A stretch of DNA of 30,173 nucleotides from Promethearchaeota archaeon (GCA_027031765.1 JALVPN010000211.1:1-30173); one strand, 5' to 3'. Positions 10,557 to 16,486 are shown, counted from the stretch's first letter. The notes: generated from the sequence alone by a model not told the origin. Numbers and translations are program-made.

Positions 10557-11339
10557 ATGATGCCGCGGGTATGCCTGACCAACGATGATGGTTTCAACAG
10601 CCAAGGCCTCCAGGAGCTGGCACGGGCAATCAGGTCTGAGATGGAGGTCGTGATTGTCGTACCAGACGGGCAGCGCAGTGCTACAGGGAAGGGGCTCACG
10701 CTGAACCAGCCCATCCGGATTGCCGAGAGAGAGGTGCTCAGCGGCATCAGACTGGTCGTGCACACAGGGACACCTGCCGACTCGGTGATTATTGCAAAGT
10801 CGTTCTGCAACAACATTGACCTGATTGTCTCGGGGATAAACTCCGGTGCCAACCTTGGGTACCAGAGCATGTTCACCAGTGGCACTGTGGGTGCCGTGTT
10901 CGAGGCCGCATTTGTGGGGGTGCCAGCGCTGGCAGTCTCACAGGTGGTCAGACCTGAGGAGTGGTTTGCCCCCAGCGGGGTCGGGCGCGACTACACGAGG
11001 ATTTGCGAGATGTGCATGGACGTAATACGCCGAGTCCTCAAGAGGGGGCTCCCGGAGGGTGTCGACGCGCTGAACCTGAACTTTCCGGGCAGGGTCACTG
11101 AGAAGAGCAGGATTGTGGTCACAAGACCGACGCGCGTCCGCATGGCAAACGACCTTGAGAGACGTGTTGACCCCAATGGCAGTGCATACTACTGGATCCG
11201 GGGGTACCAGGTGGAGTCGGGGCCAGGGACAGATGCCTACGAGGTGTTCGAGAACGGGAACGTGTCGCTCTCGCCAATTGTCATAGAGAGCGTGGGTGAT
11301 AGGGAACTGGCCGCTGTGCGCGAGTTCATGGGCGACTGA
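10557..11339 (+). CDS. surE: 5'/3'-nucleotidase SurE
   Basis: LTNDDG, QRSATG, GTPADSV, SGINSGANLG, SGTVGA, DPNGSAYYW. Confidence 0.95.
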   Translation: MMPRVCLTNDDGFNSQGLQELARAIRSEMEVVIVVPDGQRSATGKGLTLNQPIRIAEREVLSGIRLVVHTGTPADSVIIAKSFCNNIDLIVSGINSGANLGYQSMFTSGTVGAVFEAAFVGVPALAVSQVVRPEEWFAPSGVGRDYTRICEMCMDVIRRVLKRGLPEGVDALNLNFPGRVTEKSRIVVTRPTRVRMANDLERRVDPNGSAYYWIRGYQVESGPGTDAYEVFENGNVSLSPIVIESVGDRELAAVREFMGD

Positions 11340-12345
11340 GCATCTCAAGGGCCGCCCAGAGAGCATCGGTCTCGGGCCGTGGCAGTGGCCGCTCACCGTG
11401 GTCATCCACAACTCGGCGGGTGCCCGGGTCGCTGACCGTCCGGCCAATTATGGTTGCCCGTACCCCCGCAGCCCCGATGCTGGAGACGACCCTGTCCGCG
11501 TGGCCGGCGTCGCAGGTCAGGAGCATGCAGCCGCTGCTGATGAGTTGCATGGGGTCAATCCCGAGGACGGAGCATATCGCGCGCGTCGCAGAGTGGACCG
11601 GGATGCTACGTGCATCCACCATGCAGCCGACAGAACTGGCATCGCAGAGCTCGTGCAGTGCGCCGGCCAGACCGCCCTCGGTCGGGTCGTGCATTGCCGT
11701 GACGTGCCCGGTCTTGAAGGCGACAACACCCTCTTTCACCACGCTGATCAGTCCGCGCATCGCTGTTGCCTGGGAGAGGACATCCTCATGGATGTGTGCC
11801 TGCAGGTAGTCCCACCCCTCTGTTGCAAGGATGGCAGTGCCCTCGATTGCAACCGTCTTGGTCATGACTATGGCGTCACCCGGCCGGGCACCGGCTGATG
11901 TGACATACTCGCCGGACTCGCTGAAGCCGAGCATGAACCCTGCCACGACCGGCTGACCCGTGCGGTCGGTCACCTCGGTATGACCCCCCACGACCGAAAC
12001 GCCGAGAGAGGCGGCTGCACTGTCAATCTGTCCCATTATGCGCTTCAGCTCGTCAGGGGTGGCACCACGTGGCAGCAGTATGGAGGAGAGGAACCATCTC
12101 GGCGGAATGCCGAATGTAGCAATGTCGTTCGCGTTCACATGCACAGCGAGGTAGCCAACGTCCTCAACGGAGCCTGTAATGGGGTCGGAAGCCGCAATCA
12201 GGACGCCCGTGCCAATACGGATGACAGCAGCGTCCTGTCCCAGGCCGGGGCCCAAGACGACATCCGGGTCCTCACGACCGAGGTTGGTGAAGACAATGCG
12301 TTCCAGGAGTCCGGGCGGCACCTTACCGGGGAGCAATGTGGGCAC
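11326..12345 (-). CDS. AIR synthase-related protein (PurM/HypE/ThiL-like family)
   Basis: GKVPP, GPGLGQDAAVI, SDPITG, VNANDIA, GGHTEVT, MHDPTEGGL, ISSG. GTG 12345 preferred to 12420. Confidence 0.9.
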   Translation of the reverse strand: MPTLLPGKVPPGLLERIVFTNLGREDPDVVLGPGLGQDAAVIRIGTGVLIAASDPITGSVEDVGYLAVHVNANDIATFGIPPRWFLSSILLPRGATPDELKRIMGQIDSAAASLGVSVVGGHTEVTDRTGQPVVAGFMLGFSESGEYVTSAGARPGDAIVMTKTVAIEGTAILATEGWDYLQAHIHEDVLSQATAMRGLISVVKEGVVAFKTGHVTAMHDPTEGGLAGALHELCDASSVGCMVDARSIPVHSATRAICSVLGIDPMQLISSGCMLLTCDAGHADRVVSSIGAAGVRATIIGRTVSDPGTRRVVDDHGERPLPRPETDALWAALEMLSRP

Positions 12346-12584
12346 CTCGACACCGTGCTGTGCGCAGGGGCCTGTTGCTGGTGCATGAAAAGTGGTATCA
12401 TCGACACCCAGACTGGGCACTCCTCACTCACTATGACACCAGACTCGCGGCCCCGTGCGCTGGTGGACGGGTGTGGACTGTACTAATAAATCAGACCCAA
12501 TGGGCCGGACTGTGGTCACACCATGCGACCTGTGGTGGGCCCGCGTGCAGCGCCGCAAGGACGGACAGACAGACATCACAGCAC

Positions 12585-14063
12585 TCAGTGTGAGAGGTAT
12601 GCCTCGGCCTCATGGAGGTCGTCCATGGAGAGGCGAGAGCGGGTCTGGCAGCCGGCCAGGAAGAGGCCGATTGCGGAGCGTGCGGCCATGACCTCTCTGT
12701 AGAGGTAGCAGCGGCCACCGCCGGCCCTTGCAACGAGGAACGCCCCGAATGTCTTCCTGAGGGCCGGCACTGCGAGTACCGCCTCAATGGGGTCGGCAAG
12801 GCCGTCCCTGCGGGCGCGGAGTGTTGTGGCCAGCTCCAGGGCCTCATAGTATGGCCTGTGGAGCAACGTGCACCAGTGCCGTTCGTGGGGGTTGACATTC
12901 ACCGCTGCAATGCGCACCTTCGACCTCCGGAGGAGGCGCGCCGCTTTTACCAGGTCCTTGACGGGCGTATACTGCTCGTGTCCGGGGCCGACAGACTGTG
13001 CCAGGGGGATGTTAGGTGCAAAGTCGGAGATCAGGACCACCAGGGGCTGGACATCACGGCTACGCATCCTCTCCCGTCGGACAACCTCAAGGGCTTTCAT
13101 GAGCGCCTCGGCAAGGGGTGTCAGTCCTGAGACCCGCAGGCGGGCAAGTGCGCGGTAGACCTTGTTCCAGTTGGTAGTAGGCGCCTGTACCTCGACTGCG
13201 CCACTGTCCTTGAAAGCGATGATACCGACGCGGTCCTTTGAGCCACGGGTCTCCCGTTCTATGCGCCCAATGACGTCCCGCACCTCCCTCATGCAGCCCT
13301 TCATGGACATGCTGACATCAACGACCATGAGCACAGTGAGTGGGACGCGACCAGTGAACACCGACTCGCGGATGTCCTCACGTCTTATGGTGAGGTGGCC
13401 GGTCTCAGAGGGGCGCTCTCCACGGGCAATGGCTGCCACGACCGTTGATGGCAGGTGGATGCTGTGGACTTCCGGCCCCGGAATCCTCCAGCGCGTTGGC
13501 CGGCCGTGTTCTTCAGACTCCGACGACTTCAACGAGCCCATGGCACGGGAGCTCACACTCTTGTGTACCCAGCCACCAGAGCTCACTGTTGAGCGGATCA
13601 TTGCCCGCGTCATGAGGTCACGCGGGTCGAAGAGCACCTCGCCAGTGTCGAGGTCGGGGAGCTTCACATAGAACGAGGAGTCGAGGTCGGGTGTGTCCCT
13701 GATGTCAGACTTTGGGCCCATGATACGAGAGGGGGGCCCACCGTCGTACGGGCGTGTCGCGGTGCCCCACTCGTCCCCCGGCTCCGGCGCCGCACGGCCA
13801 CGTTCGACCACATCAATGCCGGCTGCAGGGCCGCTCTTCCGCTTGACCATTGTCCGGAGCCACTTACGGATGAGTACGTACATGATGGGGATGAAGACTA
13901 TCGTGTCCACAATGATTGCCGGCACGCTCGGGACGCCAGCAATCGCCGAGCCGAGGAAAAAGTTGAGTGGGCTCCACATCAACCATGCAAGGTATGACAG
14001 TGTTACCACGGCCATGATGGTACATATGGTGCCCTTGACCGGGTCACCCTGGGGGTTCCTCAC
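12585..14063 (-). CDS. ChlD/CobT-like vWA-domain protein with N-terminal transmembrane hairpin; probable -1-frame continuation of the upstream AAA gene
   Basis: GRPTRWR...[10 protein letters not shown]...IRREDIRE ChlD-type pre-vWA segment. [13 protein letters not shown] (13305-13319), [13 protein letters not shown]. Hydrophobic residues about 12-30 and 47-65. Confidence 0.85.
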
Positions 14064-14083
14064 CCCCTCGGTGCTTTTTTTTT
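14045..14083 (-). promoter_or_regulatory. Candidate -1 programmed frameshift/slippage signal (A9 run + hairpin)
   Basis: Minus strand reads GGT AAA AAA AAA GCACCGA GGGGGT-GAGGA-ACCCCC AG GGTG. A9 is at 14075-14083, core 6-bp stem at 14051-14067, extended CACC/GGTG pairing. Confidence 0.75.
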
Positions 14084-15250
14084 ACCATCAGCCATGTCGG
14101 TCTCGACAACACGGCTCTGACGGCCGAACCTCCCACCGCTGAGCCGGGGGCCTGTGATGTCAGAGGACTCCGATGGCGACTCGGTCGGCGACTTGCGACG
14201 GTCTCGCTTCTCACTTATCGAGACAGCCTTGGTGATGGCCTCTTGGATCTCCTGTGGGGACGGGGGCTCGAGGAGCCCACCGCGTCGTGTCCGGTGACTC
14301 AGCGCCAGTCTGGCACCCAGTTGCATGTCCTCAAGTGTGACCTCGGTCCGTCCTGAGAAGGCTGAATGGGTCATGGCGACCTTGCTGATAACGATGTCAG
14401 GTCGTACGCCATCGACCTCAAGTGCGTCGCATGCCATCGCTATGGCACGCAGGCGGCTCCGTGACAGGACCACCTCTGGGAGCAGCTCACGTGCACGGAC
14501 AATCCGCTCCCGCAACTCCGTCTGTGCCGCTGCCCACTCCTCACGGAACATCTCCGGGTCGTCCTCGAATGCGAGGTTCCTGCGTACGAGCTCCATCCTC
14601 TGTTCCACGGTCAGGTGACGCCCCACTGCGACGTGCGTGGGGAACCGGTCCAGTAGTTGCGGGCGTAGCTCGCCCTCTTCCGGGTTCATCGTCCCTATCA
14701 ACACAAAGTCCGAGGGGTGGGCAACAGAGATACCCTCCCGCTCGACCACGTTCACCTTTGTGGCCGCTGCGTCGAGCAGGTCATCCACGAGGTGGTCAGG
14801 GAGGAGGTTGACCTCGTCGACGTAGAGGACGTTCTGGTTGGCCTCGGCCAAGATCCCGGGCTTCAGGGCCTGGATGCCCTCTTGCAGGACGCGTTCGATG
14901 TCCAGAGAACCGATGAGCCTGTCCTCGGTCGCCGACAGTGGGAGGTTGACCACCCGCATCTTGCGTCTCTTCACAGGCAGGGTCTCGCCACGTTCGATGC
15001 GCCGACGGCAGTCCTCACAGAGCAGACGTCCTGACGGGGCACAGCCGAACCTGCACCCCTCGACTGTCTCGACTTCAGGGAGGAGGTCTGCAAGCGCCCT
15101 CACGAGGGTGGTCTTTCCTGTGCCCTTTGGGCCGGAGATGAGGACCCCACCGATACGTGGGTTCACGCCGTTCAGGAGGAGAGCGAGCTTCAGCTCGTCA
15201 AGGCCGACAATAGCAGCAAATGGGAGGACTGGTCGCTGGAGTTCGGTCAA
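14060..15250 (-). CDS. ChlI/BchI-type AAA+ ATPase (Mg/Co chelatase I-like)
   Basis: PFAAIVG, Walker A GPKGTGKT, Walker [42 protein letters not shown]. Confidence 0.92.
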
Positions 15251-15322
15251 TATCTATCAGCTCGCATGCTGCACTGGCCTAGTTGGAACATCTCATAAAG
15301 GTGATGGTCCGCGTGATGGGTC

Positions 15323-16486
15323 ATGTCAGAGATGAACTCCGGTCTGTCACACATCCAGTGCCCACAGTGTGGAAAGGAGCACTCCCCCGACAGTGTAGTG
15401 ACGTACTGCCAGTGCGGCTCACCCCTGTTTGCAGTGTACGACACCGGACGTGTTGCTGAGCTGTTCAGCAGGGGCGAGTTCCCCACCCACAAGAGGTCGA
15501 TGTGGAGATATGGTGCCCTGTTGCCTGTACGGTCACCACAGTATGTTGTGAGCCTTGGGGAGGGGTGGACACCACTGCTGAGGATGGAGCGGCTCGGCAG
15601 ACACATAGGACTGCAGGGGCTCCGGGTCAAGGACGAGGGTAGGAACCCGACCGCAAGTTTCAAGGACAGAGGGATGTCGGCCTCGGTGTCGAAGCACCTT
15701 GAGCTGGGGAGGGAACACTTCGTGCTGCCATCAGCCGGCAACGCAGCGGTATCCCTCAGCGCGTACTGTGCATACGCTGGCGTGCATGCTACTGTCTTCA
15801 TGCCAGAGGACACACCCAGTCCATTTGTTTCCGAGTGCAAGATGTATGGCGCCGAAGTCGTGCTTGTGACGGGCACCATTTCCAACTGTGGCGCCCAGTT
15901 GCGCCGCCAGGCCAGGGAAGGGTGGACACCACTCTCGACCACCAAAGAGCCCTACCGTGTGGAGGGGAAGAAGACCATCATCTTTGAGATTGCCGAACAG
16001 CTCGGCTGGAGGCTGCCAGCTGCGGTCGTCTGCCCCACCGGAGGAGGCACTGCCATCGTAGCTGCTCACAAGGCACTCCAAGAGCTCAGGGCCATTGGGG
16101 CCGTCGAGGACCCCGGCACAAGGCTCTATGCGGTGCAGACGGAGGCGTGCTCCCCGATAGTTGAGGCCTACAACAATGGGACTGACGACGTTGCAGCGTG
16201 CCACAGACCAGGGCTGACAACCGCCTACGGGCTCAGAGTCCCACAGCCCTTTGCTGGGAGGCTGATACTCCGGGCACTGAGGGACACAGGTGGTAGGGCC
16301 GTGGCGGTCCCAGAGAGGGACATAGAGGAGATGAGGAGTGCAGTGGGGAGGCTCGGGGGACTGAACATATGTCCGGAGAGTGCTGCTGGCCTCACTGGAC
16401 TACGGGCACTGGTGGAAGCAGGGGACATAGACCCCAGCGAGGAGGTCGTTGTCCTGAACACTGCATCTGCTGCACGCTATCTGTGA
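15323..16486 (+). CDS. thrC: Threonine synthase-like PLP enzyme (fold type II)
   Basis: N-terminal CPQC...CQC, SLGEGWTPL, KDEGRNPTASFKDRG (PLP Lys), SAGNAA, EGKKT, PTGGG. Confidence 0.88.
   Translation: MSEMNSGLSHIQCPQCGKEHSPDSVVTYCQCGSPLFAVYDTGRVAELFSRGEFPTHKRSMWRYGALLPVRSPQYVVSLGEGWTPLLRMERLGRHIGLQGLRVKDEGRNPTASFKDRGMSASVSKHLELGREHFVLPSAGNAAVSLSAYCAYAGVHATVFMPEDTPSPFVSECKMYGAEVVLVTGTISNCGAQLRRQAREGWTPLSTTKEPYRVEGKKTIIFEIAEQLGWRLPAAVVCPTGGGTAIVAAHKALQELRAIGAVEDPGTRLYAVQTEACSPIVEAYNNGTDDVAACHRPGLTTAYGLRVPQPFAGRLILRALRDTGGRAVAVPERDIEEMRSAVGRLGGLNICPESAAGLTGLRALVEAGDIDPSEEVVVLNTASAARYL

Follow-up and report, generated by a model that had tools for sequence, protein, structure and literature searches.

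Frameshifting of chlD-type genes at A-rich sites, which the original prediction for the locus described here had given as background, is borne out by the literature (Antonov et al. 2013 NAR, PMC3711429; Atkins et al. 2016, PMC5009743; Kuznetsov et al. 2022, PMC9227772). Twenty-three "magnesium chelatase" fs-genes, including those of Methanocaldococcus and Methanococcus, have been described and three of them validated; in E. coli reporters carrying chelatase poly-A sites, frameshifting reached 63, 40 and 10% with 11, 9 and 7 A's, respectively, the stage at which the slip takes place not being resolved (PMC3711429). A review covers fs-chlD in a section entitled "Magnesium chelatase: also regulatory?", and structure potential 3' of the chelatase shift sites is described there as not conserved in sequence (PMC5009743). 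Genes of this kind occur in genomes that lack cobN/chlH and have no B12 or chlorophyll pathway ("stage 1"), where their function is unknown (PMC9227772). Another gene that invites comparison is dnaX, whose tau and gamma products arise in E. coli by -1 programmed ribosomal frameshifting (PRF) at A_AAA_AAG and in Thermus thermophilus by transcriptional slippage at A9, as summarized by Antonov et al. 2013 (PMC3711429).

The locus analyzed here lies entirely on the minus strand of a 30,173-nt stretch of DNA from a Promethearchaeota archaeon (GCA_027031765.1, JALVPN010000211.1:1-30173), hereafter the window. Its two adjacent ORFs, one for a ChlI-type AAA+ ATPase and one for a vWA protein, most probably constitute a single chlD-type gene with a programmed recoding site that would yield a short and a long product; we put the probability of this reading, which is based on sequence comparison, at about 0.88. 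The locus appears to be a member of the published fs-chlD poly-A recoding family, in which it would represent a new lineage using an already known mechanism. As in that family, we found a ChlI-type AAA+ ORF followed in the -1 frame by an overlapping ORF for the vWA/MIDAS half of ChlD, an A_AAA_AAR/poly-A tract whose place and register are conserved under selection, and fused homologues that are in frame; as there, a short and a long subunit would come from one gene with no separate chlI gene beside it, and the known family likewise includes archaeal members and genomes without cobN/chlH. An article by Antonov published in MBE in 2020, cited by Kuznetsov et al. 2022 (PMC9227772), is reportedly also concerned with fs-chlD genes. 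What sets the present locus apart is its Thorarchaeota/Asgard lineage, for which the literature searched gave no link to fs-chlD recoding; a two-helix membrane hairpin plus some 170 additional residues linking the AAA+ domain to the vWA domain (the nearest vWA clusters outside Thorarchaeota are 280-335 aa long); and the restriction of the recoding to one Asgard family.

The 0-frame ORF (14060..15250, minus strand), delimited as an ORF and by profile matches, encodes a ChlI-type AAA+ ATPase of 396 aa, the short product. It matches NCBIfam TIGR02030 (BchI-ChlI) at 1.6e-115 and the Pfam families AAA_5, AAA_lid_2 and Mg_chelatase, and its Walker A (GPKGTGKT at residue 40) and Walker B (VLYVDE at residue 141) motifs are intact. 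The -1 frame (12585..14081, minus strand) is open from within the A run to its stop at 12585 and corresponds to the last 496 residues of the long product, comprising a linker, two hydrophobic helices, a vWA/MIDAS domain and a C-terminal domain; the nominal vWA ORF is 492 aa long. This half matches Pfam VWA_2/VWA and TIGR02031 (3e-19), and its MIDAS motif (DxSxS) is intact as DVSMS at residue 645 of the long product. Both ORFs match TIGR02442 ("putative cobaltochelatase"), the ATPase covering positions 2-346 and the vWA half positions 403-613 (2e-32) of its 641 positions, which suggests that they are two halves of one ChlD-type protein. Kyte-Doolittle windows place two hydrophobic segments at about residues 407-425 and 436-462 of the long product (13866..14033, minus strand); these are retained in 19 of 19 aligned orthologs and are predicted to form a membrane hairpin that separates the AAA+ domain from the vWA domain. 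The ATPase tail, otherwise variable and charged, contains the motif GG(R/K)FGRQ at about 14105-14125 (minus strand), some 15 codons 5' of the run; the motif is also conserved in orthologs and is common to the short and long products.

The 3' end of the ATPase ORF reads GAT GGT AAA AAA AAA GCA CCG AGG GGG TGA. Its A9 run (14075..14083, minus strand), the putative recoding site, is read as AAA AAA AAA in the 0 frame (phase 0) and presents the heptamer A_AAA_AAA (X_XXY_YYZ) in the 0-frame phase. The 0-frame TGA stop (14060..14062, minus strand) lies 12 nt past the run, which is also its most frequent position in the 55-species census described below, and overlaps the nominal GTG start of the vWA ORF (14061-14063) as GTGA; across loci, this stop is embedded in Ile/Val-Arg codons of the -1 frame (ATA AGR/GTG AGR). 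After the run, the -1 frame continues as AAA AAA AGC ACC GAG GGG GTG AGG AAC CCC. A TAA in the -1 frame (14082..14084, minus strand) takes its T from GGT and its two A's from the first two positions of the run; together with the start of the conserved peptide considered below, it restricts the register change to the seven A's that remain or the 11 nt after them. The TAA itself is not conserved: it is present only where the preceding Gly codon is GGT, and it occurs in the window and at 12 of the 55 junctions in the orthologous loci. Conceptual translation across the junction gives 888 aa, of which 392 residues are shared with the short product and 496 follow the shift.

The run is beyond chance. 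Among the Lys codons of nine ORFs in the window, AAG outnumbers AAA by 92 to 16, and three of these AAA codons are those of the run. The genome to which the window belongs, a MAG of 2.95 Mb with 59% GC and 95% completeness, contains only eight A/T runs of at least 9; in a genome-wide check of all eight, the A9 run was the sole one situated between two long ORFs, none of the other seven showing this two-ORF pattern; the A9 run is apparently also the only one of the eight located within coding sequence. That the run has been kept as pure AAA despite a roughly 6:1 preference for AAG and the rarity of such runs in the genome argues that it acts as a nucleic-acid signal and not simply as Lys-Lys-Lys. 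The distribution of A/T runs in this genome is non-monotonic: there are 74, 14, 4, 6 and 1 runs of length 6, 7, 8, 9 and 10, respectively, and one of 13, so that lengths 7-8 are depleted and lengths of at least 9 are in excess (8 observed vs 2.9 in the iid expectation). The seven other long runs (C55:12197, C66:10451, C67:21025, C101:4117, which is a T13, C139:11081, C165:24244 and C167:7516) are apparently intergenic or located at 5' ends.

An alignment-based scan of Candidatus Thorarchaeota/Promethearchaeota MAGs yielded orthologous loci from which we compiled a census of 55 Thorarchaeota species-level loci with a complete junction. A poly-A run occupies the same place in all 55 species and in 21 genomes of the family. 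It comprises at least eight A's in 54 of the 55 species and seven in the remaining one; 40 species have exactly A9, and 53 have at least nine. A -1 shift is needed to join the two ORFs in 49 of the 55 species, with A9 in 39, A10 in six, A11 in three and A7 (CCA AAA AAA TAA) in one, whereas four species are in frame (three with A10 and one with A11) and two are in the third register. The run falls in codon phase 0, 2 or 1 in 41, 8 and 6 species, respectively, and every phase variant offers an A_AAA_AAR heptamer. The three nearest relatives (75-76% identity in the ATPase) have A9 in phase 0 and need a -1 shift. Lengths of 384-470 aa, mostly about 396-400 aa, were found for every one of the best 120 ATPase clusters from NCBI, JGI, ENA and Logan; they indicate that the ATPase ORF ends just past the run and that independent assemblies as a rule show the split state. 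A mean column identity of 70% points to strong purifying selection on both halves.

Two kinds of variants deserve separate mention. In the L013/L063 lineage, the long run is interrupted (GGG AAA AAG AAA CAG CCA AAA AAA TAA); all that remains is an A7 heptamer that abuts the 0-frame stop and is perfectly phased as X_XXY_YYZ. This variant is the best hint that a ribosome may be able to shift here. Two assemblies (L040 and L079) would need a +1 instead of a -1 shift, one having A9 with a shifted upstream phase and the other A8, and an assembly error, an additional indel or a genuine difference in length could account for them. More generally, the six assemblies of the 55 that are in another register could reflect length instability at the DNA level.

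The original prediction had proposed that slippage on the A run lets one locus give two products, a short one and a long one, and the comparisons above speak for it: the run and its register are conserved (55/55 and 49/55), and the orthologs are not cleanly separate genes. Its account of the local sequence (the 3' end of the ATPase, the TAA in the -1 frame, the open -1 frame, the spacer and the stem) was reproduced in full, as were the 888-aa product and its junction peptide. It had also asked whether the run is truly A9 or a misread A10; A9 was found again, with a word depth of about 14x, in an independent Logan assembly of what is probably the source run, a hydrothermal-vent metagenome represented by contigs, which drop rare length variants. 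A search for public sequencing runs with this sequence listed this DNA run alone and no RNA run.

We considered whether the two ORFs might be ordinary separate genes, with the vWA protein initiated by termination-reinitiation at the GTG that overlaps the ATPase stop as GTGA and with the run merely encoding Lys-Lys-Lys. The overlap in the window is consistent with this explanation, as are the annotation of two genes in every public Thorarchaeota record examined and the presence of a GTG or ATG at most 23 nt from the run in 11 of 51 split loci. However, most orthologs have ATA, ATT or GTA at the position of the GTG in the window, and in 39 of the 51 split loci no ATG, GTG or TTG occurs in the vWA frame before +47 to +63 nt after the run, where the first available start is already within the first membrane helix. 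Ahead of the first widely shared ATG (14013-14015), the alignment reveals 16 codons conserved as protein (14016..14063, minus strand), which encode the highly conserved (I/V)RNPRGDPIKGTIC(A)I; the column entropy of the RNPRGDPIKGTIC codons is 0.55, 0.27 and 1.48 by codon position, a third-position wobble that is seen in the -1 frame only and that argues for selection on this stretch as protein. Since most split loci have no early start codon, gene callers choose inconsistent and truncating internal starts, giving vWA products of 476, 433 and 477 aa. The conservation of a pure AAA run against codon preference also speaks against separate genes, which we consider a very improbable explanation of the locus, even if some independent initiation of the 492-aa vWA protein may take place at the GTG in the window.

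In-frame fused homologues indicate that the two halves belong to one protein. A natural in-frame JGI protein of 880 aa is 67% identical to the 888-aa conceptual product, which it matches colinearly across the junction in an alignment that spans residues 9-886 and has a single gap; this JGI protein was the single fused form recovered in a search among longer proteins, in which unrelated long proteins crowd the candidates, so that the figure is not a count of fusions. In other Asgard families, AAA-TM-vWA is one uninterrupted ORF: the split is limited to a single family of Asgard archaea, and the genes sampled in its sister families are in frame. Within the family, one species (G012; locus L022, G012:C20) has a genuinely in-frame gene of 893 aa that still keeps an A10 run, and its two sister species (L101 and L102) are split and have A9. 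It could be imagined that the run is a site of phase variation, in which replication slippage between A9 and A10 within populations turns the long protein on and off, and the occurrence of A8, A9, A10 and A11 in otherwise similar contexts, with four species in frame and two in the third register, fits such a switch. Yet a switch should leave a mixture of states and not the same -1 state in 49 of 55 species; the fusion in G012 differs from its sisters by more than the homopolymer count (A9+CCCCG became A10+CG); the Logan contig contains no length variant, with the reservation already made for contigs; and no other chlI gene could supply the short subunit when the locus is "on". We give phase variation as slim a chance as separate genes. 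Less credible still is the idea that the split reflects homopolymer sequencing or assembly error, or the decay of a once-fused chlD into a pseudogene. Homopolymers are indeed error-prone, and a few assemblies show in-frame A10 or A11, but the same out-of-frame state recurs across independent projects and assemblers, with about 50 species and over 100 protein clusters showing it, A9 is present in the independent assembly, and the strong purifying selection and the intact Walker and MIDAS motifs do not suit a pseudogene. On these comparisons, sequencing error can be excluded as a general explanation.

A programmed recoding site would thus be expected to work as follows. Standard decoding through A9 would meet a stop four codons on and give a soluble ChlI-like AAA+ protein of 396 aa. 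In a fraction of expression events, the register would move back one base within the A run, either because RNA polymerase adds one extra A and produces an A10 transcript or because two tRNA-Lys slip by -1 on A_AAA_AAA. After the slip, the same N-terminal 392 residues would continue into the two membrane helices and the vWA/MIDAS domain to give 888 aa. The short and long products, which have an identical AAA+ module, would then co-assemble into a ring tethered to the membrane by the long subunits; such co-assembly is expected by analogy with ChlI/ChlD.

As to which molecule slips, we give transcriptional slippage slightly better than even odds and ribosomal -1 frameshifting slightly worse than even odds, and the two may coexist. 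RNA polymerase slippage would be favored by the length of the runs, which is at least nine in 53 of 55 species where seven A's suffice for tandem tRNA slippage, by the occurrence of the run in three codon phases, by the retention of A10 in the in-frame gene of G012, and by the lack of a conserved stimulatory structure. A long A/T run that is indifferent to codon phase, as found in these 53 species, is the pattern of the Thermus dnaX type. The A_AAA_AAR heptamer in every phase and the phased A7 variant beside a stop make ribosomal frameshifting equally compatible with the sequence. Of the elements of a canonical -1 PRF cassette, the heptamer was found, and a structure 5-9 nt 3' that is conserved among orthologs was not. 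In G012, the short form could be made by slippage in the opposite sense, by analogy with Thermus dnaX.

The original prediction had described the site as a classic -1 PRF layout with a hairpin. The layout is indeed present in the window, where a stem-loop (CACC..GGGGGU-GAGGA-ACCCCC..GGUG; 14045..14073 with its core at 14051-14067, minus strand) has its core after a 7-nt spacer and folds in ViennaRNA at -20.4 kcal/mol (z -2.59; 3 of 200 dinucleotide shuffles fold as well), but the hairpin is not conserved. RNAalifold gave no consensus structure for 60 distinct orthologous junctions. Of these 60, only the sequence of the window can form all six core pairs, and at least five of the pairs are possible in six; over the 50 nt 3' of the run, the orthologs have a mean z of -0.9. 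The nearest relatives lack the hairpin and fold at only -3.8 to -9.5 kcal/mol. We therefore rejected a conserved stimulatory hairpin. The stem-loop is specific to the genome of the window and not a conserved part of the device, and in that genome it would be a local enhancer at most.

In dnaX and in the present locus alike, two AAA+ subunits with a common N-terminus come, or would come, from one gene through a poly-A site and assemble into one complex, and "split" and "in-frame" genomic configurations are both natural. In dnaX of E. coli and Thermus, however, the long form is the one in frame, whereas here it is the short form; the two-ORF dnaX genes described by Antonov et al. 2013 (PMC3711429) resemble the present locus in this respect. 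The protein family and function of dnaX are unrelated, and of the upstream SD and the downstream hairpin that E. coli dnaX requires, neither is conserved here.

With respect to the class I chelatases ChlIDH and CobNST, the locus possesses the corresponding AAA+ (I/S) and vWA-MIDAS (D/T) modules with intact motifs, and it probably works like a ChlI/ChlD pair. It differs in that its D-like subunit is predicted to be membrane-anchored. CobN/ChlH (PF02514) was not found in the genome of the window (0/1, 95% complete) or in the family genomes (0/41), the controls being positive, and a second ChlI-type gene was not found in the genome of the window. The absence of CobN/ChlH means that membership in the class I chelatases proper is not supported and that classical tetrapyrrole metalation is unlikely. 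The locus may thus be a ChlI/ChlD pair without the large subunit, like the published "stage 1" fs-chlD genes, and its membrane anchor offers a clue that such orphan pairs might be MoxR/vWA-like machines and not chelatases. We tentatively speculate that slippage on the A run is a switch of localization and stoichiometry, in which a Pol II-like archaeal RNA polymerase would slip so as to convert part of a soluble AAA+ pool into membrane-anchored AAA+-2TM-vWA subunits of a mixed ring acting on a non-tetrapyrrole client; we regard this more specific proposal as rather unlikely to be right in all its parts, and if true, it would provide the first documented case of programmed transcriptional slippage among Asgard archaea.

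Among prokaryotes, Asgard archaea have the transcription and translation machineries most closely related to those of eukaryotes. For the study of recoding, the locus would provide a lineage-wide case (about 50 species) in these archaea and a natural system for asking which of the two slips, a Pol II-like polymerase or the ribosome. For annotation, the placement of the vWA start at an internal ATG in every public Thorarchaeota record examined removes the conserved peptide and sometimes a membrane helix, and the true products are probably of about 396 and about 888 aa.

The gene order, threonine synthase (divergent), ATPase-vWA, a HypE/ThiL-like PurM-family gene and SurE, is conserved across Thorarchaeota loci; as all nearby genes are syntenic, it gives no specific functional link. 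A 232-aa ORF (15247-15945, minus strand) shares 4 nt with the start of the ATPase ORF and was rejected as a possible operon partner: it has no Pfam or NCBIfam match and is a shadow, in antisense, of the threonine synthase gene on the plus strand (15323-16486). On the other side of the locus, 165 nt 3' of the vWA ORF and on the same strand, the PurM-superfamily gene (11326-12420, minus strand) best matches HypE (5e-39) and ThiL (5e-29), all matches being below the family cut-offs. It is not located beside the fused homologues of other Asgard families and is kept at this position in 86 of the retrieved Thorarchaeota loci.
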